Of a stretch of 64,000 nt of DNA, positions 6,532 to 59,232 are shown in pieces. A model generated the notes under the pieces. That model saw only the letters and a list, made by a program, of their open reading frames with translations, ran no database searches and was not told the DNA's origin. Each line of letters begins with the position of its first letter. Within the stretch, counting starts at the first letter, position 1. The stretch spans positions 2,190 through 66,189 of the forward strand of contig CAMCYL010000004.1 in the NCBI GenBank assembly GCA_945883905.1, in the 5' to 3' direction. A program made the position numbers and the translations under genes. Source of the DNA: Akkermansia muciniphila (GTDB lineage: Bacteria; Verrucomicrobiota; Verrucomicrobiia; Methylacidiphilales; CAMAQI01).

Positions 6532-6944
6532 AAACAATCCATAAAATAAATTTTTAATCCCGTAAATCCTATCAATCCATGTAAAATTTTTCATTCATTC
6601 AAAATCATAACCAACAGTTGAAGGAATCCTAAAACAGCTTAAAGCTCTTTCATTCCGTCACGAAATTCAGATTTCAAACCCCTGTTGGTTATAAGTTGTG
6701 AATAAGTTGAGATTTATAACCAAGAACTTTCAATAAATCAGACTTGAATGACTTTTTGCTTTCCCTCTGAGAGAAATTCTCCATCTTTTCCTCAACTTAT
6801 TTTCGTCGGCAACTCTTAGAGGATCAGTAAATTAGAACCGATTTCTGGAGTTATTGACGTCATTAAGAAGAAGATGATCTCTTTCTTTTAAAATAAAGAA
6901 ATAAAACCATCTCCTAATAACCGCTCTTGAATGGAATAAAAGTT

Positions 6945-9201: not shown

Positions 9202-9334
9202 AGGATAAACCTTTAATAAGAATATTCTTATTAAATAAAATAGCAAGTTTCTTTAATAAAAGATTACTTATTAAGCCCAGATTCTGCTTTAGGAATCGAT
9301 TTTATCTGTAAAGCATGTCACCAGAATGGTGAAA

Positions 9335-40633: not shown

Positions 40634-40796
40634 TTTTAATTCAATTAAGTATTATAAAATATTTAAAAATACATTAATAATAAATATTTAATTTGATTAT
40701 GTATTATAATGGATGATAATTAAGAGTCAATCAGAATTATTGGATATTTTTCTGATCTTAGTGTCGATTCGAAACTAAAGCTTGCGAGGAGAAAAA

Positions 40797-41873: not shown

Positions 41874-41904
41874 AATAAAAAAAGAATAGAAGTAAGGGCC
41901 ATAT

Positions 41905-43011
41905 ATGAAAATCGGATTGATTAAAGAGATTAAGAAACATGAGTATCGAGTTGGACTAACGCCGATGAGCGCCAAAGAGTATATTCAATCGGGCCATACC
42001 GTGCTTGTGGAATCTCAGGCAGGAATAGGATCTGGCTTTTCAGATGAGGATTATAGCCGTGCCGGATGTCAGATTGAATTATCTAAGAAAGCAATTTTTG
42101 ACCAATCTGAAATGATAATTAAAGTAAAAGAGCCGTTGCCTGAAGAGTTTGAGCTATTTCAAGAGGGACAAATACTTTACACTTATCTTCATCTAGCCGC
42201 AGATCGTCCTCAAGCTGAAGCACTTTTACGAAAAAAGGTGAGTGCCATTGCTTATGAAACAGTCGTTGAAAGCGATCGCTCTCTTCCATTGCTTGTTCCG
42301 ATGAGTCAGATTGCGGGACGACTTGCAATCCAAGAAGGAGCTAAATACCTTGAGAAACCGATGGGAGGAAGAGGGGTTCTATTGGGAGGAGTTCCAGGAA
42401 TTCGCAAAGGGAAGGTGCTTATTTTAGGGGGAGGGATCTCTGGGTTAAATGCCTGTCAAATGGCTGTTGGCTTAAATGCAGATGTCACGATTGTGGATAT
42501 TTCTTCAAAGCGTCTTGCTGAATTGGATTCAATGTTTGGAGGTCGAGTTAAAACTCTCTATTCAAATTTTTATAATATTGAAACAGAACTTGTGGATGCT
42601 GATTTAGTCATCGGTGCGGTTTTAATTCCTGGGGCTGCAACTCCTAAGTTAATTAAAAAAGAGCATCTCACAAAAATGAAACCCGGCTCTGTGATTGTTG
42701 ATGTCGCTGTTGATCAAGGAGGTTGTTGTGAGACAACCCGTGCGACTTATCACGATCAACCGACTTATGTGGTGGATGGAGTGATTCATTATTGTGTTGC
42801 GAATATGCCTGGAGCTGTAAGTCTTAGTTCGACTTTTGCGCTAACGAGTGTGACTAATCGATATGGACTTCAGATCGCAAATCAAGGACTTGAAGCGGCT
42901 TTAAAAAACTCGCAACCACTAAGGGAGGGATTAAATTGTTATCAAGGACGCTTGATGAATCAAGCCGTCGCAGAAGCGATTGATATTCCATTTGAACCTT
43001 ATTTAAATTAA
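41905..43011 (+). CDS. ald: Alanine dehydrogenase
   Basis: MKIGLIKEIKKHEYRVGLTP.., ..VLILGGGISGLNA.., ..VDVAVDQGGCCETTRATYHDQPTYVVDGVIHYCVANMPGAV is canonical Ald. Confidence 0.92.
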   Translation: MKIGLIKEIKKHEYRVGLTPMSAKEYIQSGHTVLVESQAGIGSGFSDEDYSRAGCQIELSKKAIFDQSEMIIKVKEPLPEEFELFQEGQILYTYLHLAADRPQAEALLRKKVSAIAYETVVESDRSLPLLVPMSQIAGRLAIQEGAKYLEKPMGGRGVLLGGVPGIRKGKVLILGGGISGLNACQMAVGLNADVTIVDISSKRLAELDSMFGGRVKTLYSNFYNIETELVDADLVIGAVLIPGAATPKLIKKEHLTKMKPGSVIVDVAVDQGGCCETTRATYHDQPTYVVDGVIHYCVANMPGAVSLSSTFALTSVTNRYGLQIANQGLEAALKNSQPLREGLNCYQGRLMNQAVAEAIDIPFEPYLN

Positions 43012-43052
43012 TTGTTCATGTATAAAGAAGTCCGAAACAAAGGAAGACACAA

Positions 43053-44372
43053 ATGAAAAAAAATAACGCTGGCGATTTTCGATATGCCGTGGGCGAAAAA
43101 ACAGTTCCTTGGAATGCCGTAGGTGAATTTTATGATGTTGAAGATGCCGTTCAAGTCGCGCGATTTTTATTTCCAACACAAGAACCGAATAGTGAGTATC
43201 AATCAGGTCTTAAATTAGTTCAAGAAGGACTCATGAAGATGCGTCAACAAGGAAAGCCTGCGACTAAGTTGACTCTCGGAAAAACGGTTCAAAAAGCGGA
43301 GGAAATCATTGCTGAGTACACAGGATCTAAATATGCCTGCTTGACGACGAACTGGACTGCGGGGATGGAGATCGCCTATAAACTTTCAGGATTACAGCCA
43401 GGTGATGAGGTCATTATGCCAGCGATTACTTTTGTCGCTACAATGGCCTATCCGTTGAGTATTGGAGCAAAAATTGTTTTTGCAGATATTGATCCTGAAA
43501 CGATTAATATCGATCCCGCTGACATTGAACGTAAAATTACTCCTAAAACTAAAATGATCGTTCCAGTTCATATCGGTGGAACTCCTTGTGACATGGATCC
43601 GATTATGGCGATTGCTAAAAAGCATAGTCTTTATGTCATGGAAGATGCCGCCCATGGACTCGGAGGAAAGTATAAAGGAAAAAGTCTTGGGTCTATCGCT
43701 CATTTTGGAGGACATTCACTCCATGAAGTGAAAAATATTAATTCTTTTGGAGAGGGGGGGACTCTCTTAACGAACTTAGACTGTGGAGAGCAATTTTCGA
43801 AAGCCCGCTTTCTTGGGCTTGATTTCACAAAAAAAATAAAAAATTGGCTTTATGATATCTCTCCGATTATTGATCGCTTTGGTAAACCTCAAGTCGCAGG
43901 AAACCACTCCTTTACAGAGATTCAAGCATTAGGACTCATTCTTCAGATGAAACGGCTTGATGAGATTATTGCAAGACGGAAAAAAGCAGCTCAAAAAATG
44001 AATGAAATTCTAAAGCAAGAACGAGGAATTTTAGTTGAAAAAGCGGACACACAAGAAACTTATGGAACCCATCATCTCTATTTGTTGCGAATCGAACCAC
44101 AAATCGTTGGTGGAACCATTCAAGAGCTAACAAAAAAACTTTCAGACAAAGGGCTTACTTGTATTACTCACTTTGGGCCAATGTATCGATTCAATATTCT
44201 TAAATCTTTTGGGTATGATGAAGAGAGCATCGCAAAAAGTTGCCCTGTGACTGAGCGAATGTTTGACACATCCTATACGCATCTACCATTGTACCCATTG
44301 ACAGAGGAGCAAATTAACTTTCAAGCGAATGCCGTGGTTGAAGCGGTAAGAGAAATGAAATCAAACAAATAA
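43053..44372 (+). CDS. DegT/DnrJ/EryC1/StrS-family PLP-dependent sugar aminotransferase
   Basis: ..EVIMPAITFVAT.., ..VMEDAAHGLGGKYKGKSLGS.., ..SLHEVKNINSFGEGGTL (PLP-Lys followed by GEGG). Confidence 0.85.
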   Translation: MKKNNAGDFRYAVGEKTVPWNAVGEFYDVEDAVQVARFLFPTQEPNSEYQSGLKLVQEGLMKMRQQGKPATKLTLGKTVQKAEEIIAEYTGSKYACLTTNWTAGMEIAYKLSGLQPGDEVIMPAITFVATMAYPLSIGAKIVFADIDPETINIDPADIERKITPKTKMIVPVHIGGTPCDMDPIMAIAKKHSLYVMEDAAHGLGGKYKGKSLGSIAHFGGHSLHEVKNINSFGEGGTLLTNLDCGEQFSKARFLGLDFTKKIKNWLYDISPIIDRFGKPQVAGNHSFTEIQALGLILQMKRLDEIIARRKKAAQKMNEILKQERGILVEKADTQETYGTHHLYLLRIEPQIVGGTIQELTKKLSDKGLTCITHFGPMYRFNILKSFGYDEESIAKSCPVTERMFDTSYTHLPLYPLTEEQINFQANAVVEAVREMKSNK

Positions 44373-44377
44373 ATTTT

Positions 44378-47300
44378 ATGTCGAAAATGACAAAACTACT
44401 CTCGATTTGCATAGGGCTCGTTTTATTTACATATTTAAAAGCGGAAATCGTAATTCCATTTTTTGATAAACCTCCTGTGGTCGATGGTCGGGTGTCTGAT
44501 AAGGAATGGGATGGGGCTCCAACACTCGACTTGGTAGGGTTAAAAGGAGACCCGATTACAAAATTGGCTCAGGTCCGAGTTGCGTACGATCAATCAAATC
44601 TTTACTTTTTGTTTATTAATCAAGAACCTGTAATGAAAAATCTCCGAAACGATTTTACTCATACTGAAGAGCGGGATGTCCAGATTTGGAGTGATGATGT
44701 CGTGGAGATGATTATTGATCCCTACCGCGCTGAAGCATCCGATGCTTTTCATATTCTTACGAATGCTCGGGGGATCGTCTATGATGCCCACAATCGCAAT
44801 ACCGTTTGGAATCCCCAAATAAAAATTTTAACTTCTAAAGAACAAGAACGTTGGATCGTCGAAGTCTCTCTTCCTTTTCGTGATATTGGATATACCCCGC
44901 AAGGAGGGGAACGATGGGATATGAATTTTGCTCGGCAAGAGAAACAAAAGGGAGAGTTGAGTAATTTAGTCGGTAAAGAAGGAGAAGCTGGCTTCATTCA
45001 TCCGAGTCGCAGAAAAACATTTATTTTTGGTGCTACCAAAAAAAATACGGTTGAACTTTTAGGCTTTTTAAAAAAGGGAGAACCTTTTGCTCAACTTCAG
45101 GTCAATAATTTTGGTACAGAAAAGAAGGAATGGATGATACGAGTGAATAGCACTCAAGATGGAAGTTCCCTCTCGACAGAAACAAAAAAAATTAGTTTAG
45201 ACGTTAAAAAAAGTGAAAAAATAGAGATTCCTTACATCATTAAGACTGGCACGCAACTTATTTCATTGGATGTTTTTGATCTGAATCTGAAGAAATCTGC
45301 CTATAAAAATCGAATCGAATACACAATCTATGATCCAAACGCATCGACTGCGCAACGTTATTGGAAAATAGAGGATCCACTTTACACAGAGCTTTTAGGT
45401 CAAGATTCTTACGGAATTATTAAAAACACGGGAATGCCAATTTTTGGAACAGGATTCGTTCATTTTAAATTTCGCACAGCAGGACTTCAGTATGGATTTC
45501 CATATTCTGAATTTGAGTATTATCAAACGGCGGCGCGTGATAAAATAAGAAATGTAATTCCTTGGCCTACCATTGAAGATCCTCGATATCCTAATTTTAG
45601 CCATTTTTCAAGGCAAACAGGAAGTAAAGCCTGTTTCTATCCATATTTTATCTTTGTTCCAGAAGTTCCCACTGTAAAAAGACATCCATTTCTCTATGAT
45701 CCTCGTGTAGAAGATTATTTTTTAAAAGATATCGAGCGAGGAATTAAAAAATATGGGGATATCATTGAAAGTCTTTGGTTTACAGATGAGCAATCAAGTG
45801 GAATGGCAGAATATGGAGTTCTTTTCTACGAAGAGCAGAAGGAAACATACCCCTTTATTCTTCAAGTGAATGAAACGGTTAAAAAAGAATATGGATATGG
45901 AAAGTGGGGGATTCCTGAAAATAAAGGAGATCGTAATCCCTTTCGATGGATCGCATGGAGACGTTGGCTTGCTGACCGCCAAGTCAATTTAATGTCGCGT
46001 GCTTTTAAATTGACAAAACAATTAGATCCTAAAATAGTCTTCATTTCTGAAGATCCTCAAGCGGTTCACCAAGCGGTAGATTATAGTCGTTGGAAAGGAA
46101 TATGTGATTTAGTCACACATCAATTATTTCCTCGTAAGACACCTGAGGACTATCACTTCGGCTTTATCACAAAACATATCGCAGATCTATCAGGTGTTTC
46201 TGAAATATGGCCCTGTCCGCATGTTGAAGAGTATGCAGGCAGCTTTACCCCTGAAGAAACGGTTGGTCTTTTAAGTCAAATGGTTCAAAATGGAGCCACG
46301 GGAATGACAATGGCGCCTGTCGATGCCATTGGAATGAGTGAAAAAAAGAAGACCCTACACGATGAAGAATTTGGAGCTCCTGATCGCTGGAAAACAGTTC
46401 TAAATGTCATTGATGAGTTGCGCCAAACTAAAAAACCAATCTATCCTAAAGCCGACCATGCTCTTTTATATTCGACGGATACGATTGCCACTTATCCCAT
46501 GTATGAAACGAATGAAGAATTACCGATGGGTTATACACTGTTAGGACCTAGTACTCGTGGGTGGTTTGATTTTATCAGCGACTATCAAATAGAGAGAAAA
46601 GAAAAGAATTTGAATCATTATAAGGCAATTTATATTGCAACTGCGAAGTATCAAAATGAGAAAACCGTCCGAGAGCTAATGAAATATGTGGAGGAGGGAG
46701 GTACCCTTGTTTCTTTGGATCCGGAAGTATTCTCCTTTTTTTCGAGTGGAGACTCATCAGCAGACTTGAGAGAAAAATTATTTGGCATTGAGGTTCTTGG
46801 ATCTGACTCACACTCAAGTCGAATTCAATGGGGAGAGATTAAAGACCTCGTTCAAGGAGGAACCCCTCAAAAGATTAAAATTAAAAATGAAAAAGTAACT
46901 GTTATCGGGAGCTTCGAAGATGGAACCCCTGCAATTGTTTCGAACACTTATGGCAAAGGAAAAGCGATTTACTTTGCATCATCCCCTTGTTTTTCACGTT
47001 GTGTGAATCATACAGGATGGAGAACTGCGTTGAAGAAGTTCCAAATCTCCTTAGGAATTCAAATCGATCAAAAAATTTGGCGGTACCAATTACCGATGAA
47101 TTTAGCTGCCAAACTACCAAGCAGAAAAAATAATTGTCTGACCAATAACTATGTCGAATGGCGTCAAATGAATCCAATTCCCATAGGAAATATAGATACA
47201 AAAGGAACATATCAATATGAAATTGCTCCAGATGCCGTCGCAGATATATCAGCAGTGAACACAGAAATTCCCTTTGAAAAAGGGAAGCTAACGAATCGTC

Positions 47301-47674
47301 GTGCAGCGGCTAATGCTGGAAATGTGGATTACGGTATAGGGAAGATCGAAGATTGGATTGTGACCTATGATAAAGAACTTAAAGGAGTCATCACCTACAA
47401 TCTTCAAAAACCGTATCAGATAGAGGGGGTGTCGGTAACCTTTTCGGGAATATTACCAAGCCTTAAGGTTATGCTCTCTGATGATGGGAAGAATTGGAGA
47501 GAGGTAGGGACTTATCATGAGAAAAAAGCAAAAGAGACCAGTCCATTGGATGTACGTTGCTTTGAAATCACATGGAAAAAATCTAAGGCACAATATATGA
47601 AGCTTGATTTAGGAGTTCGCGAACTAGGAGAGACTCTTTCTCTTGCTGAAATCGATATTTTTGGTCTCCCCTAA
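44378..47674 (+). CDS. Giant secreted multidomain protein: CBM9-like N-terminus, glycosidase-like/GATase1-like core, discoidin (F5/8 type C)-like C-terminus (paralog I)
   Basis: Signal peptide MSKMTKLLSICIGLVLFTYLKAE. PPVVDGRVSDKEWDGAP..SDDVVEMIIDP is CBM9-like. Motifs shared with 54653-57637: YSRWKG, ADLSGV.EIWPCPH.E, NGATG, GGTLV.LDP.VF, KIWR.Q.P, CLTNNYVEW, KGKLTNR. The C-terminal end ..SDDGKNW..YMKLDLG..LSLAEIDIFG. Confidence 0.6.
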   Translation: MSKMTKLLSICIGLVLFTYLKAEIVIPFFDKPPVVDGRVSDKEWDGAPTLDLVGLKGDPITKLAQVRVAYDQSNLYFLFINQEPVMKNLRNDFTHTEERDVQIWSDDVVEMIIDPYRAEASDAFHILTNARGIVYDAHNRNTVWNPQIKILTSKEQERWIVEVSLPFRDIGYTPQGGERWDMNFARQEKQKGELSNLVGKEGEAGFIHPSRRKTFIFGATKKNTVELLGFLKKGEPFAQLQVNNFGTEKKEWMIRVNSTQDGSSLSTETKKISLDVKKSEKIEIPYIIKTGTQLISLDVFDLNLKKSAYKNRIEYTIYDPNASTAQRYWKIEDPLYTELLGQDSYGIIKNTGMPIFGTGFVHFKFRTAGLQYGFPYSEFEYYQTAARDKIRNVIPWPTIEDPRYPNFSHFSRQTGSKACFYPYFIFVPEVPTVKRHPFLYDPRVEDYFLKDIERGIKKYGDIIESLWFTDEQSSGMAEYGVLFYEEQKETYPFILQVNETVKKEYGYGKWGIPENKGDRNPFRWIAWRRWLADRQVNLMSRAFKLTKQLDPKIVFISEDPQAVHQAVDYSRWKGICDLVTHQLFPRKTPEDYHFGFITKHIADLSGVSEIWPCPHVEEYAGSFTPEETVGLLSQMVQNGATGMTMAPVDAIGMSEKKKTLHDEEFGAPDRWKTVLNVIDELRQTKKPIYPKADHALLYSTDTIATYPMYETNEELPMGYTLLGPSTRGWFDFISDYQIERKEKNLNHYKAIYIATAKYQNEKTVRELMKYVEEGGTLVSLDPEVFSFFSSGDSSADLREKLFGIEVLGSDSHSSRIQWGEIKDLVQGGTPQKIKIKNEKVTVIGSFEDGTPAIVSNTYGKGKAIYFASSPCFSRCVNHTGWRTALKKFQISLGIQIDQKIWRYQLPMNLAAKLPSRKNNCLTNNYVEWRQMNPIPIGNIDTKGTYQYEIAPDAVADISAVNTEIPFEKGKLTNRRAAANAGNVDYGIGKIEDWIVTYDKELKGVITYNLQKPYQIEGVSVTFSGILPSLKVMLSDDGKNWREVGTYHEKKAKETSPLDVRCFEITWKKSKAQYMKLDLGVRELGETLSLAEIDIFGLP

Positions 47675-47743
47675 AGATCATAAGGGTTTATTTGTCTCCT
47701 ATTATAAGCTTGTATCAAAGAAAGCTATAATTAGCATGAACCG

Positions 47744-48145
47744 ATGAAAAACACCTCAAGTCGAGATAGCGGCTTTAGCTTAATTGAGGTGCTTGTTGCG
47801 ATTACATTATTGATGGTGGGGATGCTAGGCATATTAGCACTCCTCCCTGTTGGAATGATCGACTATCATGATGCAAAGATGAAAAGCGTTGAATCGCAAA
47901 TGGTTGATTTTGTTGTTAAACAATGTTCAACCGGTAGTCCCTACGAACTGACTGGTCATAAATTTTACTTTGACCAACAAGGAGTCCTTTGTTCTGAAAA
48001 GGACTATGAGTATCTTATCACACTTTCAGTAAATCAAGTTCATGGGATACCGAATAATCAATTACTTACGCTTCAATTGAAAATTATTCGAAAAGGAAGT
48101 CGGAATCCAACGTACCAAAACACACAGCTTTTTAAAAGAACTTAA
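47744..48145 (+). CDS. Prepilin-type N-terminal cleavage/methylation domain protein, GspI-like minor pseudopilin (Verru_Chthon cassette-type)
   Basis: MKNTSSRDSG|FSLIEVLVAITLLMVGMLGIL has G at -1, F at +1 and E at +5. 133 aa. Confidence 0.8.
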   Translation: MKNTSSRDSGFSLIEVLVAITLLMVGMLGILALLPVGMIDYHDAKMKSVESQMVDFVVKQCSTGSPYELTGHKFYFDQQGVLCSEKDYEYLITLSVNQVHGIPNNQLLTLQLKIIRKGSRNPTYQNTQLFKRT

Positions 48146-48147
48146 AT

Positions 48148-49209
48148 ATGTCTAAAAATCGCGCTTTTGGATTACTAGAATTGTTAATTGCTATGACCAT
48201 TTTGATTATGTTAATGGGAGTTATTTTTTTTTCCATCTCTCAGGTCTCAAAATTAACGATTAAAACAAAAACAGAGATTGATGGTTATCGATCTGTACGC
48301 TTTGGAATGGAAATAATTAATCGAAAACTCAGCCAAGCCACGCTTAATTCTTATTGGGACTACTATACGAATGATGGTAAAAGAGTTAAAGACTACAATG
48401 TGCAAGAACCTTCTACTTATGGAAGGTACTCAGAACTTCATTTTGTTTCTGCGCCGTTAAATAAATTAGGGATTACTTCTCCCTCTAAATCTCACGGCAT
48501 CTTTTTTCAATCCCCTCAAGGCTATTCTCAAAACTCTGACTTACAAGGCGTTAAAGGTCTCTTAAATATATCTGGTTTTTTTTGCGGCGAATATATTATA
48601 CCTGCTCCCATTTCGTTATTTAAATCGGAGAAAAGATTTGGACTTCTGGAAATGCTTATTCCCACAGAACAATCGAATATCTATGCCTCTCGCTTTCAAA
48701 CAGATATAAATCAAGGATCTAATTATGCATGGTTTTTAGGTTGGATGGGGGACTTAGATACTCGTCGTTATATCGCCCCTGTTGCAGAAAATGTATTAAC
48801 GGCGATCTTTGTCCCACATTTTTCTATCAGTGATGACGTCGGTGTTTTAAACTCAGAGAATAGTCTAACGCCCAACCTCTTTTACGACTCAAGGCAAATC
48901 GGCCCCAATAACTCGACAGTAAAATTGGTGCGTCGAGTCGGTGGATCTTGGCAAGCAAGTTGGCTCCATCAACTGCCTCCTTTTGTAGATGTCTATCTTT
49001 TAGGGGTCAGCGAAACTTCAGCACAGGCTCTACAAGCAGATCCCGACTTGATATCCGATCTGTTTAGTGGAATTATATTTGAACAAGAAAATACAATTAC
49101 AAAGAATTTAGATTTAGTCGTCAATCGTGGACGGAAATATAATTATGATCTGCGTTGGTTTAAATCAACCGTGACTTTATTTTCGTCTCAAAACGAAGCG
49201 GGATTTTAG
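48148..49209 (+). CDS. Prepilin-type N-terminal domain protein, GspJ-like minor pseudopilin (Verru_Chthon cassette-type)
   Basis: MSKNRA|FGLLELLIAMTILIMLMGV has A at -1, F at +1 and E at +5. 353 aa. It starts 2 nt after the preceding stop. Confidence 0.7.
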   Translation: MSKNRAFGLLELLIAMTILIMLMGVIFFSISQVSKLTIKTKTEIDGYRSVRFGMEIINRKLSQATLNSYWDYYTNDGKRVKDYNVQEPSTYGRYSELHFVSAPLNKLGITSPSKSHGIFFQSPQGYSQNSDLQGVKGLLNISGFFCGEYIIPAPISLFKSEKRFGLLEMLIPTEQSNIYASRFQTDINQGSNYAWFLGWMGDLDTRRYIAPVAENVLTAIFVPHFSISDDVGVLNSENSLTPNLFYDSRQIGPNNSTVKLVRRVGGSWQASWLHQLPPFVDVYLLGVSETSAQALQADPDLISDLFSGIIFEQENTITKNLDLVVNRGRKYNYDLRWFKSTVTLFSSQNEAGF

Positions 49210-49212
49210 GCT

Positions 49213-52200
49213 ATGCAACAACATCGTTCGACGAATTATAAAATTTATAATATTTCAAGCCGAGGCTTTGCGATTCTACTCTCAATGGGAGCGTTGCTAT
49301 TACTTTCAATTATTGTGATATCCTTTCTAGAAACAGTACGTACAGAAAAAACGTTAATAGGTCTTAACGGAAGTGAACAGGAAGCTCGTCGTGCCGCAAG
49401 CTCAGCTGTTCAACTTGTGATGGCGCAAATTCAAAAAGCGACCTCTGATTCCTCGGGAGTGTGGAGTTCCCAGCCTGGCTTAATTCGAGTGCATCAATCT
49501 GGTAACACGATGGTTGCCTATAAACTGTATTCCTCTGATCCCTCAAAAATGATTTCTTCAAGTTTTAAGGAAGGCGAAGATGATTTTAGTGGTATTGAAG
49601 TAGGTGGAAATTGTACTGATTTAAATCAACCGATCTACTTTCAAGGAAGGACCGTTTATCCAATTCTCGATCCCTCTTTATTTAACAATGGTGATCCATT
49701 GGTTAAAGGATTAGAAAATCGCCATGGATACGGGAACGAAAATTTTCAAATGAAAGTTCAATGGATCTATCAACTTGCAGATGGTAGATTGGCTGTAAAT
49801 GGATCTTTTACAAAGGATAATCCTCCCGTCGCACGGTTTGCCTTTTGGGCAGATGATGAAAGTACTAAAGTCAATATAAATACTGCCTCAGAGGGAGTTT
49901 ATTGGGATATTCCGAGAACTGATTCGAGAGAAGATGTCAATTTTTCACTAAAGATTCCGGCTTTAAATGAATTCCAACGTTATCCTGGACACCCCGCAAC
50001 GACATCTTTAAGTCCCATTCTTAATTCAAAATCCTTGGGCGGAATTTTTAATAAAACAGGTCGTGAATATGAAAAAGCCGTCTATAGTTTTATCCCTCGT
50101 ATCTCTGAAGGTGGCTCTGAAGGCGGAACTGTAGAGCCACGAAATCCCTTAATTCAAGATACCGATCGCCTATTTGGATTTGTGGATGAGATGATCTTTA
50201 AAAACGATTCCTCTGACTTAGATCGTCAAGTGCAAGCTTTTAGCTTAAAAAATGCCGCAAACCTTTCATTTGTTCTGACGGCCAATAGTCGTTCGCCAGA
50301 GGAAACCGTTTTTTCAACTCCTCGTGTAACTATTTGGCCTCTTCATACAAATAAAGACTGGTGGACAGCCGCAGAAAAAATGATCGCTTTTTGCTCGAAA
50401 TTAAATGGTCATCTTTATGCGTTTCAACGCGAAAAAGCGTTAGATGCCATTTTTGATTATCAAGGGATTTCTCGAAATAAAGAGCTTTATGCCTATCTAC
50501 AAACATTAATTTCTAAGTCTCCTCCACATCTCAATACGAGCCTTAAAAATCATTGGGGAATAGATGCGGATCAAAATTTAACACTTTTATTTGATTATAT
50601 TCGAAGCGGTCCAGCATTACAGCACCCACAACTTGAAAAAAGCTATACAACTCAATTTAATAATATTCCTTCAATGCAAGCCGCTTCTGGAGCAGTCCAT
50701 CCGATTCTTATCAATAATACGAAAGGAATGGGAAGAACACTAAGTGTTTCACAAGTTGGTATTATCATCAGTGCATTGAGTGGAGCAGCTCCAGCCTCCA
50801 TGCAAATCTCTGCTTCGATCGCTGTGCAATTTTATAATCCAAGCCAAGGAATCGTGTATTATACGCCTCAAGGACTCGAGATTCGTATTTCAGGAATGGA
50901 TGCACTTCGTTTAAATGGGAATAATTTATTCGGCGGTGGCAATGTTTCAGCTTGGGAGTCTTTTGGCGGAGGATATATTAAAGATCTTACGAGGAATGCG
51001 ATGGGCGGTTTTTTAAGCTTAAGCACTTTTTTCTGTCATGAACTTCTTGATGCGAACGGTGATGTTTCACCGATTTTGTGGCTTGGAGGATATCCAAGAC
51101 CTAATAGAGCACCGCTTTGGAATGGAACGCAAGGAGCTATTTGTGTAGTCGATGCTACTGCTCCAGTTATTTTTTCTGGTGGGACAATAACAGTTGAAAT
51201 TCGAGATAAGAATTCACTTAGTATTATTCAAAAATGCGAAGTTAACCTTGATTCAAAAACCTTTAATCTTCCGAATTCAGCTCCTGCAACAACTCAAGCC
51301 ATTACTCCTTATGCTGCATCTGCAGGTGATCCTGATTGGTTATGGTGGAATAAAATACTCTATAATGATACCGCGCTTCCTCGCTATCGATTAATCTGGC
51401 CTGCTTTTGATACTGTTTTCTCATCTATCCTAAAAGCAAGCAGCCAAACCAATGGGGATTTTCGATTACTTGCGGCTCGCACAGGAACAAGCAGTGATTC
51501 AATCATTAACGCTAACTTTTTTGAATCCTCCACTGGGTCAACACCTCTAGTGCACGACTTTAAATCTCCTGAGGCAAATGAACAAGCCGCCGCTGCAGCT
51601 GGAACTACAAGTGCCTACTATCCAGGATCTTCTGATGAACAGAAAACCAATGAAGGAGCACTTGTCAGCGGAGCTTCCTATACAACAGGTATCTACTCTT
51701 CAATGTATCGACCGCAGGTAAATCGTAATGTATCTGAAGCTCTACAATCCAATGGTTTAAAAGGAGATTGGGACACTGGTATTTCAAACTATGGCGACGG
51801 TGCCTATATTAATAAACCAGATGAATCCTTTCGATCAAATGATACGGGCGCTAATAGATCGATTGCAGCAACCTATACTCAAGATACCTCCAGTAGAGGA
51901 ATTCATTACTTGCGTTGGTATGGCACCGCTGATGCCCTCGCAATTGCGGGGGCAGGGAATGCTGACACGTGGTACTCTCCAAATCGTCAAATGCCCTCAC
52001 CTGTGATGTTTGGATCATTGCCAAGCGGGGTGAAACGACTTCTACCATGGCAAACCTTTCTCTTTTCACCCGTAAGTGCAGCTGATTGTGATAAAGGAGG
52101 CCGTGTCCATCCCGGTTGGGGAAAAGACCTCTCCGACCATCAGCTTTTAGATTTTTTTCGAATGCCGGTTGCTGAACCGTATGCGATTAGTGATGCAACA

Positions 52201-52836
52201 TCTACCGCAGGTAAAATAAATGTTAATTTTCAATTAATTCCCTTTTCACATATCAAACGAGCCTCGGGTATTCACTCGGCTTTAAAATCTGTAAAAATTG
52301 GCGCTATCCCTTTATCCGACGCTTCAACTTATAAGTCAGGGAGCGTTCAATCTGCCTCATATCGATTTGAAATTGATCCCGAAGAAACTGTAAAGGGAAT
52401 CGAAGAAAAATTTAAAACGCCTTCAGCATCCTATCGAACCGAAAGCGAGATTGCAGAAATTTTTCTCTATCCAAAAGGAGTTCCCTATGCACCGAATAAT
52501 ACAGCTCTTTACTCTTGGTGGAGGACAAGATCTTTAACAGGAGACAATATGAGAGAACGCCCTTATGTAGAATTATTTCCTCGTCTCACCACTCGATCTA
52601 ATGTTTTTACGGTTCATCTTTGGGGAGAATCATTGAAAAAAAATAAGCATACAAACCCTTCATTTTGGGATGAACAACGTGACCAAGTAAGAGGAACTTT
52701 TCGTGGTTCAACAATGATTGAACGTTATATTGATCCACAAAATCCAAATCTTCAAGATTTTGCGTTGAATTCGAATCAACGCTTAAGTGATTTTTATCGA
52801 TTTAGAATTATTCAAAGCAACCAGCTCGTTCCGTGA
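49213..52836 (+). CDS. Giant GspK-like pseudopilin-type protein (Verru_Chthon cassette protein A-like)
   Basis: 1207 aa. N-terminus ..SSRGFAILLSMGALLLLSIIVISFLE has no E at +5, as in GspK. FWADDESTKVNINTASE (about nt 49843-49893) resembles the GspK 'DE..K.N.N' motif. It starts 3 nt after the preceding stop. Confidence 0.65.
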   Translation: MQQHRSTNYKIYNISSRGFAILLSMGALLLLSIIVISFLETVRTEKTLIGLNGSEQEARRAASSAVQLVMAQIQKATSDSSGVWSSQPGLIRVHQSGNTMVAYKLYSSDPSKMISSSFKEGEDDFSGIEVGGNCTDLNQPIYFQGRTVYPILDPSLFNNGDPLVKGLENRHGYGNENFQMKVQWIYQLADGRLAVNGSFTKDNPPVARFAFWADDESTKVNINTASEGVYWDIPRTDSREDVNFSLKIPALNEFQRYPGHPATTSLSPILNSKSLGGIFNKTGREYEKAVYSFIPRISEGGSEGGTVEPRNPLIQDTDRLFGFVDEMIFKNDSSDLDRQVQAFSLKNAANLSFVLTANSRSPEETVFSTPRVTIWPLHTNKDWWTAAEKMIAFCSKLNGHLYAFQREKALDAIFDYQGISRNKELYAYLQTLISKSPPHLNTSLKNHWGIDADQNLTLLFDYIRSGPALQHPQLEKSYTTQFNNIPSMQAASGAVHPILINNTKGMGRTLSVSQVGIIISALSGAAPASMQISASIAVQFYNPSQGIVYYTPQGLEIRISGMDALRLNGNNLFGGGNVSAWESFGGGYIKDLTRNAMGGFLSLSTFFCHELLDANGDVSPILWLGGYPRPNRAPLWNGTQGAICVVDATAPVIFSGGTITVEIRDKNSLSIIQKCEVNLDSKTFNLPNSAPATTQAITPYAASAGDPDWLWWNKILYNDTALPRYRLIWPAFDTVFSSILKASSQTNGDFRLLAARTGTSSDSIINANFFESSTGSTPLVHDFKSPEANEQAAAAAGTTSAYYPGSSDEQKTNEGALVSGASYTTGIYSSMYRPQVNRNVSEALQSNGLKGDWDTGISNYGDGAYINKPDESFRSNDTGANRSIAATYTQDTSSRGIHYLRWYGTADALAIAGAGNADTWYSPNRQMPSPVMFGSLPSGVKRLLPWQTFLFSPVSAADCDKGGRVHPGWGKDLSDHQLLDFFRMPVAEPYAISDATSTAGKINVNFQLIPFSHIKRASGIHSALKSVKIGAIPLSDASTYKSGSVQSASYRFEIDPEETVKGIEEKFKTPSASYRTESEIAEIFLYPKGVPYAPNNTALYSWWRTRSLTGDNMRERPYVELFPRLTTRSNVFTVHLWGESLKKNKHTNPSFWDEQRDQVRGTFRGSTMIERYIDPQNPNLQDFALNSNQRLSDFYRFRIIQSNQLVP

Positions 52837-52872
52837 TTTGACATTTAACACGTAAGTTTATAAGCTTATATT

Positions 52873-53508
52873 ATGCTCAGATGTTCTAAGTTTAATTATT
52901 TCAATGCTGCTTTTTCATTGATTGAGATTCTTAGCACTCTTGCGATTATTAGTATTTTAATTGGATTTAGTCTGCCCAAATTCTTTGCAATGCAAGAAAA
53001 TGCAAGACTCTCTCAAGCCGCTGATAATGTCATTGATCAAATAAGACTTGCACGAATAGAAGCCGCTACACTCAATCGACCTGCAGCAGTTGTATGGATC
53101 GATCAAAAAAATGTAGACTCAAATACTCACAAACGTTTTATTCAAATACAACGATTTATTCAGAGTCCTTACCGAAAAACACAGGATGATTTTAGTTTTA
53201 TTCCCATGAGCAAAAAAATAACTCTTCCCCAAGCAATTCTCATTCATCCAGAGGCAGAGTGGTCGAGTTTACTTCAAAAACGGACTTCAGATGTAGATTA
53301 TATAGAAGGAATAAAAGGGGATTATCGAATGATCATCATTTATCCTAGTGGTCGTACCTCTTATGATCTCTATGATTCAGAAGGAAATCCATCAGAAGTT
53401 TTTCTGACTTTAGTTTCTGAAGATGAACTTCTCCTTACAAAACCAAAAAAAATCATTACAATCACGATCGATCCTTTAACTAGTGTAGCACGTCAATGGA
53501 GAAAATAG
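52873..53508 (+). CDS. Prepilin-type N-terminal domain protein, GspH/FimT-like (Verru_Chthon cassette-type)
   Basis: ..FNAA|FSLIEILSTLAIISILIGFSLPKF..AADNVIDQIRLARIEAATLNRPAAVVW has A at -1, F at +1 and E at +5. 211 aa. Confidence 0.7.
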   Translation: MLRCSKFNYFNAAFSLIEILSTLAIISILIGFSLPKFFAMQENARLSQAADNVIDQIRLARIEAATLNRPAAVVWIDQKNVDSNTHKRFIQIQRFIQSPYRKTQDDFSFIPMSKKITLPQAILIHPEAEWSSLLQKRTSDVDYIEGIKGDYRMIIIYPSGRTSYDLYDSEGNPSEVFLTLVSEDELLLTKPKKIITITIDPLTSVARQWRK

Positions 53509-53509
53509 T

Positions 53510-54562
53510 ATGTCTAACAAACCAACAATGGATCAAATTGCCAAAGTTCTCGGTTTGAGTCGAATGACCGTTTCTACGGTCATAAATCATAGATCTCAAA
53601 AGCGATATGTTGCTACCAAAACTGAGAAAATAGTTCTCTCCTATTTAGATCAGATTGGGTACGTACGCAACTATCATGCAATGCGCTTAAAAATACCTAC
53701 TAAAGAGATCGTAGGGATATTTTATGACGGATCATTTATTGTTTCTCATGTGACGCAAGTTTTTAGTCAACTGATTAATGAGACTTTAAGTCATTCAGAC
53801 TCCCGTCTTGAACTCAAAATTGCTCCACCAACAGAAGCCGCCTCTGCGATCGAGGAGTTAATTGGACGCGGTGTCACGCACTTGGCTTGGATCATGGAGC
53901 AATCAAGTTTATATTCGTTTGAGACGATCCCTCGAGTTTTTAGTCTTCTTGAGAAGAAAAGATCGGCTATTTACAATTTTTCCGATTATAATTCTGACTT
54001 TAACCTGCATAAACGTTTCCCAAAAATATATGCATTAGGTTATGATCGTACGGCTGCCTTTCAATCCTTGGCGCAGAAACTCAAAAAATTTAAACATAAA
54101 CGTATTTGCATTCCACAAATTAGATACTCATCACAAAAGAGGATTCTGCAATATTTCGATTGGAAAAGCATAGGAATTGAGGTCTTTTTTATTCATCCTG
54201 AAAATCTTCAAGAATCTTCGAGTTCTACTTATTTCGAAAAAATTGCGAACGAAATTATTTATTATAAAAAAGAGCACTTGATTACAGCAGCTATATTTTT
54301 AGATGATGAATATGCGGCTCGCGTTCTTTCTCAGTTAACGAGAAAAAAAATTATGGTCCCTCAAGATCTCTCAATAACAGGAATGGATAATAGCCCTATT
54401 TTAGAGTTTCTTCCTCAGAGAATTGATACTATCGGAGTTCCTGTAGAAAAAGGTTATACGTATTTGAAAAACTGGATCTTTAGTCGTCAAACAGCAAGAG
54501 TACAATTGTTAGAGATGAAAATTATTTCTGGAGAAACATTAGGAGTTGCCTCTTCTTTGTAA
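53510..54562 (+). CDS. LacI-family transcriptional regulator
   Basis: HTH MDQIAKVLGLSRMTVSTVINHRS plus a periplasmic-binding-fold C-terminal domain. The ATG lies 1 nt after the TAG of the preceding pseudopilin gene. Confidence 0.85.
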   Translation: MSNKPTMDQIAKVLGLSRMTVSTVINHRSQKRYVATKTEKIVLSYLDQIGYVRNYHAMRLKIPTKEIVGIFYDGSFIVSHVTQVFSQLINETLSHSDSRLELKIAPPTEAASAIEELIGRGVTHLAWIMEQSSLYSFETIPRVFSLLEKKRSAIYNFSDYNSDFNLHKRFPKIYALGYDRTAAFQSLAQKLKKFKHKRICIPQIRYSSQKRILQYFDWKSIGIEVFFIHPENLQESSSSTYFEKIANEIIYYKKEHLITAAIFLDDEYAARVLSQLTRKKIMVPQDLSITGMDNSPILEFLPQRIDTIGVPVEKGYTYLKNWIFSRQTARVQLLEMKIISGETLGVASSL

Positions 54563-54652: not shown

Positions 54653-57637
54653 TTAGCGTGACCAAACTTCAAATTCATTAAGCCAAAGCGAAATTCCTTG
54701 GGGTCTTTGGTCAAAAGCAACTTTTATAAAACGATAAAATTTACTTTCTGGATTTAATTTCCATATTTTTTTAATATTATTACTTTCATTAAAAACATAA
54801 TCGCTTTCACTTAACATACTCCACGAAATCCCATCGATTGATCCATAAATTTTAACCTTTGGAAGATATCCACTGTAGTATAATACAAATCGATCGATGT
54901 TTTTATATTCATTTAAATTGACTATTAAATCAATATTTTCTTGTTGCGACCAGCGAACTGAGGATTCGTAGATGTTTCCTTCGTCAATACCTTTTACCGT
55001 CGAGATGTTCATCCGAGCAAGTCGATTTGTTAGCTTTCCTGTATTAAAAGTTTGAAAGCGCTCGCCTTTTGTGTCGGCGATTGAAACGCTGTCATTTTTT
55101 GGAAAAGAATTAAAATAATAACTCCCTTCATTAATTTTTTGGTTTCCAACAGATGAAGGTGTTTCATTGCTCCACTCCACATGATTTCCTGTAAGACAAT
55201 TTCCATTTACTAAATCTCTCGACCAAACTTCCATCTCAGCAAGAACCATTTTTTTGTTGGTGGGTCTTGATGAAAAAGAAATTTTAATAAAACGTTTTTC
55301 AGTTTTTAGTCCGGATAGATTTAAGATGATCTGCTCAGAATTATTTCCTAATTCCTTAGCTACCGTGCTTGTTGCGCATTCAAACTTATTGCCGTCAGAC
55401 GAAGCGTAGACTTTCATTTCTGGTAAATATCCAGAGCAGAATAGTTCAACGCGATCTAATAATTCTTGTCCATTCAAATTGATCCACAAATCAAATGCCT
55501 TAGCATCATCAAATCTCACTACATAGGGGTCAATGTTAATTAACTGCAAGTTTTCTTGTTTGGTATCTATTCCTGTTTTAGTAGAGTTCATTCGATTTGT
55601 TAGCTTTCCCTTTGAAAAGCTCTGCCACCGTTCTCCCCCTGTATCATTGACCGTTGCAAATGAATTATCTGCATTTTGATACCAATAAGAGGCCCCACTA
55701 TTTACCTTATTGTTCAATGGAATAGGTCTATTAAGAATCCACTCTACATAATTATTCGTTAAGCACATTCCTTCTTTATTTTCTTTTTTAGAAATAAAAG
55801 AGTCTGGAAATTGAAATCTCCATATTTTTTCATCGACACGGCCACCTATCGAGCTGTGTATGGCACGCATGAGACGTTTCCAAGCACCATCGCCAACAGT
55901 TCTAGCATCGTCACAAGGATTATAAGCGAACCAAAAGGCTCTTCCTCCGTTAGGATAGTACTTACATGTTACCGCAGGAGAGTTATCACCATAAAAAGTC
56001 GCCCAAGAAGTTAAGCCTTGGTCAAAAGCTCCTGTGTAACGAGTTTCACCATAAACGGTTGCCCAATAGTTGGATATTTCAATATATTGAGTAGGGGCAG
56101 TTTTAGTCACATCAACTCCAAATAGTGATTTTCTACGACCGGAAATATTAGTTCCGAGTGGATTTTGATTAAAAACCAAAGGATCTAACGCCACCAGTGT
56201 CCCCCCTTGTTTCACATAATTTTCTAATTTATCAATCACACTAGCTCTTTGAATTTTAGACGCGGGAAGATAAATAATTTTAAACTGCGATAAATTTAAT
56301 CCAGCGAGAACCTGTTCGTCATTAATAAACTTGAAAGCGGCTCTCACTTTATCGCTACTTAAAAAATTATATAAAAACTCAATATTATCTTTTCTTTCAA
56401 CAGCATACTCAGTTGTATAAACGTTTGCTGTAGTCGATGCATATGTATCTGTCGAATAGAGAATCGCTGTATCGGGTACGGGCTGTTTTATTTTAGGTAA
56501 TGTTTCTGCGACTTGGCTTATTTTTTTTATTAAATTCCATCTGGTTTTATCTGCAAATCGATCTTCATAAACAAAATACTCCTTACTAAACTGCCCCAAT
56601 CCATCCATAGGACAAAACTTTAATCCTGTTGCTCCATTTCTAAAAATATCACTAAAAATTTCCAAAGACTCTTCTCCATCGAATGAGTTAATATAGGCCT
56701 CGATATGGGGACACGGCCATATTTCTTCAACTCCGCTTAGATCAGCAAGCAGCTTTGTTTGAAATCCAAACATACGACGATGATAGTCACCAGAATCGAG
56801 TAGCTGTTGGGTGGCAATATCCATGACCCCTTTCCATCGACTATAGTCAAACGGTTGATGTAGTGCTGTTCCATTCCATGAAACAATTTTTATATTTGAA
56901 TCAACCCCTTTAACGATTCCTCTAACCTCTTCTGCAAATAATTGAAGTTTATTATAAAGCCATTTTCGATACGCCCACCAACGCTGTGGCGTCTTATCTT
57001 GGAAGCTTAAGGGAATACCATAAACGCCTCCTCCAAACTGATCTTTAACTTCTTGATTCGCTTTATCAATAAATGGATAGGTGCCTTTTCCACCATGTTT
57101 CATAAATATTTCGATCCCACCATATTCATCCCACTCCATACGTTCATCGCCTAAATTAATTCCAAATACTAAATCTCGATCATTAAATAATACTTTATTA
57201 AGTTCTGTTTTGTAAGTAGCTTGAACCGCAGGATCTACTAGCATTGGTAAATCAAATGATCGAGGTATCGTTGAGGGAGCAGTTGATGCTGTAATTAAAA
57301 CACAAGCTTTTACTCCGTTTTTTCGAATATTTTCCGGATAATTATAACGTGTGTCATAGAGCTCATTAAATCCAATATAAATAATATGTTTATCGTTTTT
57401 TAATTCACGAAAAACATCTTCGTATTTATAACGCATCCCCATCTGAAGCGAAAAGGGTTGCAACCAAGGATAAGCTCTTGTTTGATTAAACATAATTGCT
57501 CCGTTTTGAGCGAGCGGATTTCTTTGCTCTCCTAGAAGCTCATTATAAAGAGGATCTGTTAACTTTTGAACTCGATTTGAAGATAGACTAAAATCAAAAA
57601 GAAATATTAATGTTAATAGTATGTATATTTTTTTCAT
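54653..57637 (-). CDS. Giant secreted glycosidase-like protein with two tandem discoidin-like C-terminal modules (paralog II)
   Basis: The ATG at 57637 gives the signal peptide MKKIYILLTLIFLFDFSLSS; the track start at 57676 is less likely. It shares the motif series with 44378-47674. The C-terminal module is duplicated (CLTNNYVEW..KGKLTNR..EMEVWSR, then CLTGNHVEW..TGKLTNR..EFEVWSR). Confidence 0.6.
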   Translation of the reverse strand: MKKIYILLTLIFLFDFSLSSNRVQKLTDPLYNELLGEQRNPLAQNGAIMFNQTRAYPWLQPFSLQMGMRYKYEDVFRELKNDKHIIYIGFNELYDTRYNYPENIRKNGVKACVLITASTAPSTIPRSFDLPMLVDPAVQATYKTELNKVLFNDRDLVFGINLGDERMEWDEYGGIEIFMKHGGKGTYPFIDKANQEVKDQFGGGVYGIPLSFQDKTPQRWWAYRKWLYNKLQLFAEEVRGIVKGVDSNIKIVSWNGTALHQPFDYSRWKGVMDIATQQLLDSGDYHRRMFGFQTKLLADLSGVEEIWPCPHIEAYINSFDGEESLEIFSDIFRNGATGLKFCPMDGLGQFSKEYFVYEDRFADKTRWNLIKKISQVAETLPKIKQPVPDTAILYSTDTYASTTANVYTTEYAVERKDNIEFLYNFLSSDKVRAAFKFINDEQVLAGLNLSQFKIIYLPASKIQRASVIDKLENYVKQGGTLVALDPLVFNQNPLGTNISGRRKSLFGVDVTKTAPTQYIEISNYWATVYGETRYTGAFDQGLTSWATFYGDNSPAVTCKYYPNGGRAFWFAYNPCDDARTVGDGAWKRLMRAIHSSIGGRVDEKIWRFQFPDSFISKKENKEGMCLTNNYVEWILNRPIPLNNKVNSGASYWYQNADNSFATVNDTGGERWQSFSKGKLTNRMNSTKTGIDTKQENLQLINIDPYVVRFDDAKAFDLWINLNGQELLDRVELFCSGYLPEMKVYASSDGNKFECATSTVAKELGNNSEQIILNLSGLKTEKRFIKISFSSRPTNKKMVLAEMEVWSRDLVNGNCLTGNHVEWSNETPSSVGNQKINEGSYYFNSFPKNDSVSIADTKGERFQTFNTGKLTNRLARMNISTVKGIDEGNIYESSVRWSQQENIDLIVNLNEYKNIDRFVLYYSGYLPKVKIYGSIDGISWSMLSESDYVFNESNNIKKIWKLNPESKFYRFIKVAFDQRPQGISLWLNEFEVWSR

Positions 57638-57724
57638 AGTTATTCTCATTATAATGTTCTTAAAATATTTTTGCAAATATCAAACATGTTAATAATTGCA
57701 ATAACAACTTATATAAGACAATTA

Positions 57725-58333: not shown

Positions 58334-59104
58334 TTATGAGGCTCGTCGTTTGAGAACAAAATGACTAACAAAAAAGAGGGTTAAGAGAGAGAGCATCATA
58401 TAAGTTGAAGGCTCAGGAACTGCGGTGATATCGCGCAACTGAAATGCATTTACTGTTGGCAATGCATAAGGTCCATCGGCTGAAAATGTAAAGACCTGTC
58501 CTCCTTGATCTGCTGTAAAAGTACCGATGAGTGAGTTTGCGATACCAGTTTCGCTGTTTAAGTTAAAAGAAGGGGCGCTTGATCCTGAAGATACCGTCAA
58601 AGTAGTGCCATATCCTCCAGTTGTAATTCCTGTGCGACCATCTAAAACCAATGCTTGAAAAGCATATACGTTTCCTACTGTGAGGCCAGAGAGATTGAGG
58701 GTGAAAGATACGGGGGTGTTGGCTGCAGAGCCTGTATATAGATTTGCCCCGTCTCTTAAAAGATTACTGAGATTTGTTGAGTAACCTTGTCCGTTTGTGG
58801 GAAGAAAAATATCATCCCGTCCAGCCACTTGTCCGAGGCTCCAACCAGTTCCAGAGTAGGTAAGGCTTGAGGCTGTCCCAGAGTTTTGAAAAGAGACCCC
58901 ATTGACTGTTTCTACCGTGGTATCTGAGTCTGAAAAACCGATTGCCGTTACAAGTGTGCCTGAATTAATAACAGATGAGTCACCAGTGACATTTGTGTTA
59001 CCTGCAGTGACGCCGTTGGTTGTTCCGGACCACACGACGGTGGCCGCTTGGAGGTTAAAGGCTCCAAAAAGGATTACAGTTAAGGGTAGTAAGAGTTTTT
59101 TCAT
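58334..59104 (-). CDS. PEP-CTERM sorting-domain protein
   Basis: The C-terminus ..ITAVPEPSTYMMLSLLTLFFVSHFVLKRRAS is PEP motif plus TM helix plus basic tail. Signal peptide MKKLLLPLTVILFGAFNLQAA from the ATG at 59104. The mature part is T/S/G/N-rich. Confidence 0.85.
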   Translation of the reverse strand: MKKLLLPLTVILFGAFNLQAATVVWSGTTNGVTAGNTNVTGDSSVINSGTLVTAIGFSDSDTTVETVNGVSFQNSGTASSLTYSGTGWSLGQVAGRDDIFLPTNGQGYSTNLSNLLRDGANLYTGSAANTPVSFTLNLSGLTVGNVYAFQALVLDGRTGITTGGYGTTLTVSSGSSAPSFNLNSETGIANSLIGTFTADQGGQVFTFSADGPYALPTVNAFQLRDITAVPEPSTYMMLSLLTLFFVSHFVLKRRAS

Positions 59105-59232
59105 ATAATTAATTAATATCATTCTTACAAAATTTGTAAAAATAAAGATCGATCAAAAATACAAAAAAGAGAAAATTATAAAACAATAATGAATTACAAA
59201 ATTATTTTTTTCTGCTGTGCGATCTCTAAAAT

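Follow-up and report, generated by a model that had tools for sequence, protein, structure and literature searches.

What do four adjacent genes encode when each protein product begins like a pilin and one of them runs to 1207 residues? The question is raised by a 64,000-nucleotide stretch of DNA from Akkermansia muciniphila (contig CAMCYL010000004.1, positions 2,190 to 66,189; hereafter the window), in which four neighboring plus-strand open reading frames of 133, 353, 1207, and 211 amino acids (aa) follow one another with gaps of 2, 3, and 36 nt. We refer to them as cassette proteins B, C, A, and D, after the family described below; arrows mark the predicted cleavage junction.

47744–48145, plus strand: cassette protein B, 133 aa, a minor pilin of the GspI/PilV size class; junction DSG10↓F11SLIE.
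48148–49209, plus strand: cassette protein C, 353 aa, a GspJ-type minor pseudopilin; junction NRA6↓F7GLLE.
49213–52836, plus strand: cassette protein A, 1207 aa, a GspK-like giant and candidate cap; junction SRG18↓F19AILL.
52873–53508, plus strand: cassette protein D, 211 aa, a GspH/FimU-like minor pilin; junction NAA13↓F14SLIE.

Read off the translations, the N termini are MKNTSSRDSG↓FSLIE for B, MSKNRA↓FGLLE for C, ...NISSRG↓FAILL for A, where position +5 is not Glu, and ...FNYFNAA↓FSLIE for D. An earlier note on this DNA had claimed all four junctions, with Gly at −1 in B and Ala at −1 in C and D, and the translations bear them out. A regular-expression scan of all six frames found the class III motif in the window only at the N termini of B, C, and D. 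As developed below, we consider it probable that the four genes form a full minor (pseudo)pilin set for a type IV filament machine encoded elsewhere, with A as a giant cap at the tip.

The set already carries a name, the Verru_Chthon cassette, which the earlier note had overlooked, and by sequence comparison the four genes are one divergent copy of it in the order B-C-A-D. The best NCBIfam models were, gene by gene, TIGR02598 (B), TIGR02599 (C), TIGR02600 (A), and TIGR02596 (D). A scored 737.3 bits against a cutoff of 332.3, with residues 18–1207 lying on model positions 1–1296 of 1296; because this alignment runs from end to end, the roughly 950 residues of A for which no family could previously be named do have one. 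B (41.3 bits, cutoff 51.4), C (173.5 bits, cutoff 256.5, full-length alignment), and D (69.4 bits, just below the cutoff of 70) fall under the curated cutoffs, which is why we regard the window cassette as a divergent copy; in each case the cassette model was still the top family. In a local jackhmmer search, too, B, C, and D of the window grouped with their counterparts at 79 related loci.

More than 1,864 homologues of A were found (E<1e-5), of which the nearest are 49–50% identical, and those with names are labelled Verru_Chthon cassette protein A, TIGR02600 family, or hypothetical protein. At least 574 loci occur in genomes of GTDB species, several per genome; all 79 loci that we fetched belong to Verrucomicrobiota, and the complete genome CP170506.1 holds at least six copies. 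When the C-terminal 723 residues of A were searched alone against 1.84 billion proteins, 1,437 cluster representatives (50% identity) were returned, and the match always lay at the C terminus of proteins of ∼1150–1520 aa or of fragments. The window copy resembles the named cassette in having four adjacent genes, each best matched by its own cassette model, and in a B-C-A-D order common to 12 related loci with adequate flanks on both sides; it differs by its divergence, the nearest A being only 49–50% identical, and it lies in a region of low G+C (∼0.38–0.41). For years the cassette families have stood in TIGRFAMs/NCBIfam under a name, with no described function.

Are B, C, and D pilins at all? 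The Pfam model N_methyl (PF07963) matched them with E-values of 7e-8, 1e-4, and 2e-3, respectively; with 32.1 and 22.0 bits B and C pass the cutoff of 21.2, D falls short of it with 18.0, and D passes the related model TIGR02532 (20.0 bits, cutoff 16.3). These matches back the prepilin-type N termini proposed in the earlier note, and we take B, C, and D, on profile grounds, to be genuine class III (prepilin-type) proteins. None of their profiles matched GspK when compared with hhalign.

C could be placed by its predicted structure. We modeled it with AlphaFold2 (AF2) from 71 homologues (predicted local distance difference test, pLDDT, 85.4; predicted TM-score, pTM, 0.83), and a Foldseek search of the Protein Data Bank (PDB) returned XcpW, EpsJ, or GspJ at all of ranks 1–11, with E-values from 9.2e-5 to 0.11 and target-normalized TM-scores of 0.43–0.55; the best match was 9a1f_S (E 9.2e-5, probability 1.00). 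Its profile also matched Escherichia coli GspJ in hhalign (95.8% over 79 columns). Against the gspJ model TIGR01711, C gave no match at E≤0.01, and the C homologue of a related locus, L083, reached 29 bits (cutoff 64.85). We conclude that C is GspJ-like, with a predicted GspJ fold. For D, the best match among canonical pilins is GspH: D matched TIGR01708 with an E-value of 9.5e-5 (22.5 bits, far under the cutoff of 80), and the longest canonical hhalign match of its profile was to E. coli GspH (94.6% over 66 columns). The D homologues of L081 and L086, two further related loci, scored 34 bits to GspH, and that of L086 also matched XpsH. B matched the PilV model TIGR02523 over its N-terminal 45 residues only (E 1.6e-7, 31.9 bits), without reaching the cutoff of 52.2, and by hhalign its profile did not tell GspI (65%) from GspJ (80%).

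We then asked what kind of protein A is. Two segments in its N-terminal part bear on this question.

49213–49443, plus strand: A residues 1–77, an 18-residue leader up to SRG, F19, 21 hydrophobic residues without Glu5, and a long α1.
49843–49893, plus strand: A residues 211–227, FWADDESTKVNINTASE, with W, DD, K, N, N, and T conserved without exception across the family.

Across 78 homologues the N terminus of the A family reads [R/K]-[G 68 / A 10] before the junction and [V/I/A/F]-A-L-[V/I]-[L/I/V...] after it, with Ala at +2 in 96% and Leu at +3. Position +5 is L, I, V, T, M, A, or F and never E, and the earlier statement that A lacks Glu at +5 in the manner of GspK thus holds for the whole family. 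The start of E. coli GspK, QRG↓VALLIVL, closely resembles this N terminus and is also without Glu5 and Phe1. In hhalign, A matched a GspK profile built from 54 sequences with a probability of 94.5% (E 8e-8) over columns 1–72 only, and GspG, GspH, GspI, and GspJ with less than 8% each. Alignments of A and GspK that hhalign extended past this helix were forced, and we rejected them as untrustworthy. The AF2 model of A (residues 15–1207, alignment of 62 homologues; pLDDT 83.2, pTM 0.88) opens with an unbroken 62-residue helix, model residues 2–63.

The GspK-like DE..K.N.N segment that the earlier note had pointed out in A is the second of the two segments above. Its invariant D-E-[T/S]-x-K-V-N-I-N is in register with the GspK motif D99-x3-[C/R/K]-F-N-L-N, in which D is conserved in 52/54 sequences, the first N in 53/54, and the second N in 54/54; the expression D....hNhN occurs in 50 of the 54 GspK and all 62 A sequences. 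The motif of A lies ∼115 residues farther from α1 than that of GspK. Against 350,542 PDB chains, the model of A placed GspK or XcpX at ranks 1, 2, 3, and 6, with E-values of 0.64–2.2, which are not significant. By these comparisons A combines a GspK-type N terminus with the GspK motif.

Along its length A is split by conservation, residues 15–464 and 915–1207 being conserved and residues 515–914 variable.

50755–51954, plus strand: A residues 515–914, a variable, indel-rich middle with top-residue frequencies of 0.22–0.41 and gaps up to 40%.
51526–51642, plus strand: A residues 772–810, rich in G/S/A/T, the least conserved block (frequency 0.22, 33% gaps).
51955–52833, plus strand: A residues 915–1207, a highly conserved C-terminal region with pLDDT mostly >90 and conservation of 0.5–0.77.

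The flanks of the middle have a mean top-residue frequency of 0.5–0.77, and the middle itself, which holds most of the low-pLDDT loops of the model, is by its variability a candidate specificity module. The G/S/A/T-rich stretch mentioned in the earlier note could be located at residues 772–810, coinciding with pLDDT <50 at model residues 774–797, and is probably a disordered loop specific to the lineage. We observed a second K-I-N-V-N motif (STAGKINVNF, residues 997–1006, positions 52201–52230) in the conserved C-terminal part, within the near-invariant block MPVxEPYAISxxxSTAGKINxN. GspK likewise has two h-N-h-N motifs; the pairing of the second motifs is not significant. The last β-strands of A matched the GspK C terminus weakly (E 0.005, probability 7.5%), and we did not take the co-linear matches of this region to GspK, with probabilities of 0.2–7.5%, as evidence.

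The earlier note had also suggested predicting the structure of A and searching for related folds. With the AF2 model, Foldseek returned no significant fold relative, and for the ∼1,000 residues beyond the GspK-like part no fold relative was detected by Foldseek, Pfam, or sequence searches. Sequence searches of the PDB with A and with its family profile gave noise only, four fragments of A matched nothing relevant in Pfam at E≤10, no internal duplication was found between the N-terminal and C-terminal parts, and no lectin, von Willebrand factor A, or other recognizable module was seen in A.

Two features of the locus had been described as unusual, Ala at −1 and the order of the genes. We gathered B, C, D, and A homologues by jackhmmer from the 79 loci, aligned their columns at the junctions, and read them.

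B family junction: −1 is G in 39 and A in 28; +1 is F in 66/67; +5 is E in 67/67.
C family junction: −1 is A in 32, G in 29, and C in 1; +1 is F in 60/62; +5 is E in 62/62.
D family junction: −1 is A in 31 and G in 17; +1 is F in 46/48; +5 is E in 48/48.

Ala at −1 is therefore the family norm, found in 42–65% of B, C, and D homologues. Gly and Ala occur together inside 40 of 61 loci and are also mixed at orthologous positions within one genome, which means that the cognate peptidase must accept both. Imam et al. (2011) describe PilD cleavage "at a glycine or alanine" (PMC3244431), and Berry and Pelicic (2015) describe Gly at −1 as invariant in bacteria (PMC4471445). The frequency of Ala at −1 is, from these alignments, a notable trait of the cassette family and no peculiarity of the window locus, and hundreds of natural sequences in which Gly and Ala interchange freely make a useful data set on prepilin peptidase specificity.

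Gene order, counted in related loci with adequate flanking sequence on both sides, was B-C-A-D in 12, B-C-A in 12, A alone in 8, B-C-D-A in 7, D-B-C-A in 6, and A-B-C-D in 6. The order in the window is no oddity: together with B-C-A it is the most frequent of several arrangements. Where B and C are both in a cassette, they are adjacent and always B then C. Some genomes carry tandem B-C-A-B-C-A, paired A genes, or two cassettes, one per strand, of which one showed no C gene; the multi-cassette loci L043 (2577–13894), L044 (8119–17842), and L053 (277–13891) are consistent with local cassette duplication. A second D-B-C set, of 218, 138, and 379 aa, adjoins accB and accC in L086 (6978–9218; also in L087). 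L086 is from the same European Nucleotide Archive (ENA) assembly as the window C protein; its D scores 84 bits to TIGR02596 and its C is 49% identical to C of the window. No A gene stands beside this set on its 12-kb contig, which indicates that cassettes can exist without an adjacent A.

What surrounds the cassette in the window? From 40782 to 54562 every gene lies on the plus strand with short gaps. The first three, read from their translations, are a GFO/IDH/MocA-type oxidoreductase, an alanine-dehydrogenase-like protein, and an aminotransferase-like protein, and the cassette itself is bracketed by two genes.

44378–47674, plus strand: putative secreted glycosidase-like protein, 1098 aa, with Pfam CBM9_1, Glyco_hydro_42M, and F5_F8_type_C; ends 69 nt upstream of B.
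53510–54562, plus strand: LacI-family regulator (Pfam LacI, Peripla_BP_3); starts 1 nt past the D stop codon.

The sequence of the 1098-aa protein opens with a hydrophobic, signal-like segment. Further sugar-related genes around the block encode a ROK protein, GHL6/GH42M-like proteins, an MFS transporter, and a SIS-domain protein. The 1098-aa protein has a paralogue of 1007 aa (54653–57676, minus strand; 31% identity over ∼800 aa, E 2e-113) with GH42M-like and F5/8-type-C domains, CBM9 being present only in the 1098-aa member, and a 729-aa protein (37263–39452, minus strand) with GHL6 and GH42M is a third large related putative glycosidase by the cassette. A catalytic family was not nameable for any of the three. 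In the closest relative, L081, the order C-A-D is followed by a β-helix/GH141-like gene and LacI; in the other, L083, a CBM9/DUF4838 gene and an α-L-fucosidase gene precede B, C, and A, and a GH95-like gene follows. Scans for promoters and terminators over 40–55 kb gave counts at chance level, which is no proof about co-transcription. A verrucomicrobial alginate degrader is reported to have 67 PulG-like pseudopilin paralogues, of which one belongs to an alginate locus, and to induce a pseudopilin when given alginate (PMC13274419).

In related work on type II secretion, a GspI-J-K tip complex is capped by GspK, and GspH binds its base (PMC4471445); GspK is one of the modular pilins, its β-sheet holding an inserted domain (PMC8179133). 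If the cassette operates in this manner, a prepilin peptidase would cut B, C, A, and D after the Gly or Ala at −1, and B (GspI/PilV-like), C (GspJ-like), and A (GspK-like) would join through their N-terminal helices into a staggered priming or tip complex, which D (GspH-like) would link to the major subunit of a type II secretion pseudopilus or type IV pilus. A would top the complex as its cap and, in that position, would show its ∼1,100-residue globular body at the filament tip. The variable middle of A, the multiple cassette copies, and the operon-like setting with glycosidase and LacI genes point to a locus-specific tip that may adjust one common machine to a given polysaccharide or cargo, for glycan capture or enzyme export, as the most likely role. 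What we observed is that the four proteins belong to the family, that B, C, and D carry class III signals, that C has the GspJ fold in its model, and that A has a GspK-type N terminus and motif; that the proteins are cleaved, form a complex, sit at the tip, and are linked to carbohydrate use is proposed here.

Several results weigh against the proposal of a complete tip set. The window encodes no prepilin peptidase, ATPase, platform, secretin, or major pilin that we could find, and next to the related cassettes at the 79 loci we saw neither an ATPase nor a secretin nor a peptidase. For A, the hhalign significance is limited to the N-terminal helix, neither the whole protein nor its four fragments matched Pfam T2SSK (PF21687, PF03934) at E≤10, and the target-normalized TM-scores of its Foldseek matches were 0.15–0.28; with E-values of 0.64–2.2, scores this poor leave the top ranks of GspK and XcpX only suggestive, and a GspK fold of A is not established. 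The earlier assignment of the four genes as I-J-K-H held for J by structure and for H and K by profile comparison; that of B to GspI/PilV rather than another small pilin is weak, its basis being size and position. Some D-B-C sets and A genes also stand at separate sites. Neighbors across the 79 loci are heterogeneous, although sulfatases, fucosidases, GHL6, GH3, GH38, GH42, and GH52 recur, and given such neighbors in genomes rich in carbohydrate-active enzymes the carbohydrate link may be coincidental. Literature searches on Verru_Chthon and on TIGR02596, 02598, 02599, and 02600 found no paper, experimental or other, in the library searched, and one on Chthoniobacter together with prepilin found none.

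How far do these points favor other explanations? The one we take most seriously, though we lean against it, accepts the minor-pilin set as real and regards its sugar-gene setting as incidental, the set serving general secretion priming, adhesion, or DNA uptake. It would account for the mixed neighbors of the 79 related cassettes, housekeeping genes (LepA, UvrD, KdtA) among them, for the D-B-C set that adjoins accB and accC, and for the chance-level promoter and terminator scans; it sits less well with a glycosidase-like gene only 69 nt upstream and a LacI gene that begins 1 nt after D, with the CBM9, fucosidase, GH95-like, β-helix, and LacI genes around the two nearest relatives, and with multicopy cassettes whose variable A middle suggests diversified specificity. 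A type IVa pilus set is an unlikely alternative in which B, C, A, and D would be PilV, PilW, PilX, and FimU, with A merging the roles of the PilX cap and the PilY1 adhesin; the set would then serve in adhesion or motility, not in secretion or in capturing a substrate. PilV is indeed the best match of B outside its own family, D also matches prepilin-peptidase-dependent (Ppd) proteins and PilA N termini, A at 1,207 aa is in the size range of PilY1, and GspHIJK and the core minor pilins of type IVa pili are homologous and partly interchangeable (PMC4471445). However, the structural matches of C are the type II proteins GspJ, XcpW, and EpsJ, Pfam and NCBIfam detect no PilY1/PilC β-propeller signature in A, and PilY1 was not in the top 50 Foldseek matches of A; we accordingly rejected a PilY1 fusion. 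Type II secretion and type IV pili are hardly separable on present data, and the type IVa explanation is a variant of the one that we prefer.

By far the least probable of the three, in our judgment, is that A belongs to no filament and is a bitopic inner-membrane or surface protein with an uncleaved signal anchor, for example an assembly factor, receptor, or enzyme of unassigned fold, co-encoded with three small pilins. In its favor, A lacks Glu5, an N_methyl match in the Pfam scan, and a significant fold match to any pilin, its family mostly lacks Phe1, and A stands alone, with no B, C, or D nearby, in the eight loci counted above. Yet GspK itself is without Glu5 and Phe1, and a plain anchor would not keep [R/K]-[G/A] followed by x-A-L-[V/I] in 78/78 homologues. 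The match of the A N terminus is specific to GspK (94.5% as against <8% for GspG, H, I, and J), the invariant D-x3-K-V-N-I-N coincides with the GspK signature, and GspK and XcpX head the PDB matches of A.

We therefore return to a minor (pseudo)pilin set with a giant cap as the preferred explanation. The annotated cassette was already known; the tip-complex interpretation and the giant cap are undescribed in the literature searched, and they give a specific hypothesis, open to testing, for genes that at least some Verrucomicrobiota from soil, freshwater, and hosts carry several times per genome. They would also extend the idea of modular pilins to a size class of ∼1,200 aa and a fold invisible to domain-based surveys, and, should the cassette prove truly linked to its glycosidase and LacI neighbors, would bear on how Verrucomicrobia handle polysaccharides. 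A bolder version, which we consider improbable, is that Verrucomicrobiota use many interchangeable tip cartridges, each with its own GspH/I/J/K-like priming complex, whose caps read, through their variable middle, the polysaccharide or secreted enzymes of their locus and so program a single type II secretion or type IV pilus machine, locus by locus, to capture glycans or export enzymes. If it were true, A would rank with the largest pilin-like subunits known and have a fold unlike any solved structure, and the cassettes would be a functional counterpart of SusC/D-type polysaccharide utilization loci in a phylum mostly without them.

Some observations concern the window at large. G+C is 0.35–0.41 across ∼28000–58000, the region of sugar-utilization genes and cassette, versus 0.43–0.47 on either side, and this stretch could be an acquired or fast-evolving island; there are no tRNA genes in the window. 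A 262-aa protein (58334–59122, minus strand) carries a C-terminal PEP-CTERM motif that scored 20.4 bits, just under the Pfam cutoff of 20.7, and this motif, if genuine, implies an exosortase-type sorting system in the organism. At the other end, dnaN (6927–8039) lies where the GC skew flips from about −0.3 to positive values (∼6000–8000), which suggests a replication origin near dnaN; DnaA boxes near dnaN were at chance level, and no dnaA gene was recognized upstream. Directly downstream of dnaN, on the opposite strand, is a gene for a Fic/DOC family protein with a Fic_N domain (8041–9246, minus strand).

Finally, we compared the cassette with known pilin systems. With the GspH-I-J-K proteins of type II secretion (PDB 3CI0, 6UTU, 5VTM, 9A1F) it shares a four-protein class III set of which one member lacks Glu5. 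It differs in size, GspK having ∼330 aa against the 1,207 of A, with its ∼115 extra residues between α1 and the motif, and GspJ having ∼200 aa against the 353 of C; in having Ala as common as Gly at −1; and in a variable gene order outside any gsp operon. None of the cassette proteins reaches the cutoff of a Pfam T2SSK or TIGR gsp model, and the window set accordingly falls outside GspH, I, J, and K by sequence and inside by fold for J only.

The modular pilins (Streptococcus sanguinis PilB and PilC, CofB of enterotoxigenic E. coli, Thermus ComZ; PMC8179133) share with it the concept of a bulky module carried to the tip. In ComZ and GspK the extra domain is inserted in the pilin β-sheet, and the split conservation of A suggests the same. 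The largest modular pilin in the InterPro survey of Raynaud et al. (2021) has 860 residues (PMC8179133), an extreme that A exceeds. A would be absent from such a survey because it has no IPR012902/N_methyl match and no known extra domain.

PilY1 is a non-pilin protein with a C-terminal β-propeller. A resembles PilY1/PilC in size and in its proposed place atop four minor pilins, and differs from them by its pilin-type N-terminal helix and by having no PilY1 domain in hidden Markov model or Foldseek searches. By analogy, the Verru_Chthon cassette would work most like the GspHIJK and FimU-PilVWX minor-pilin sets.

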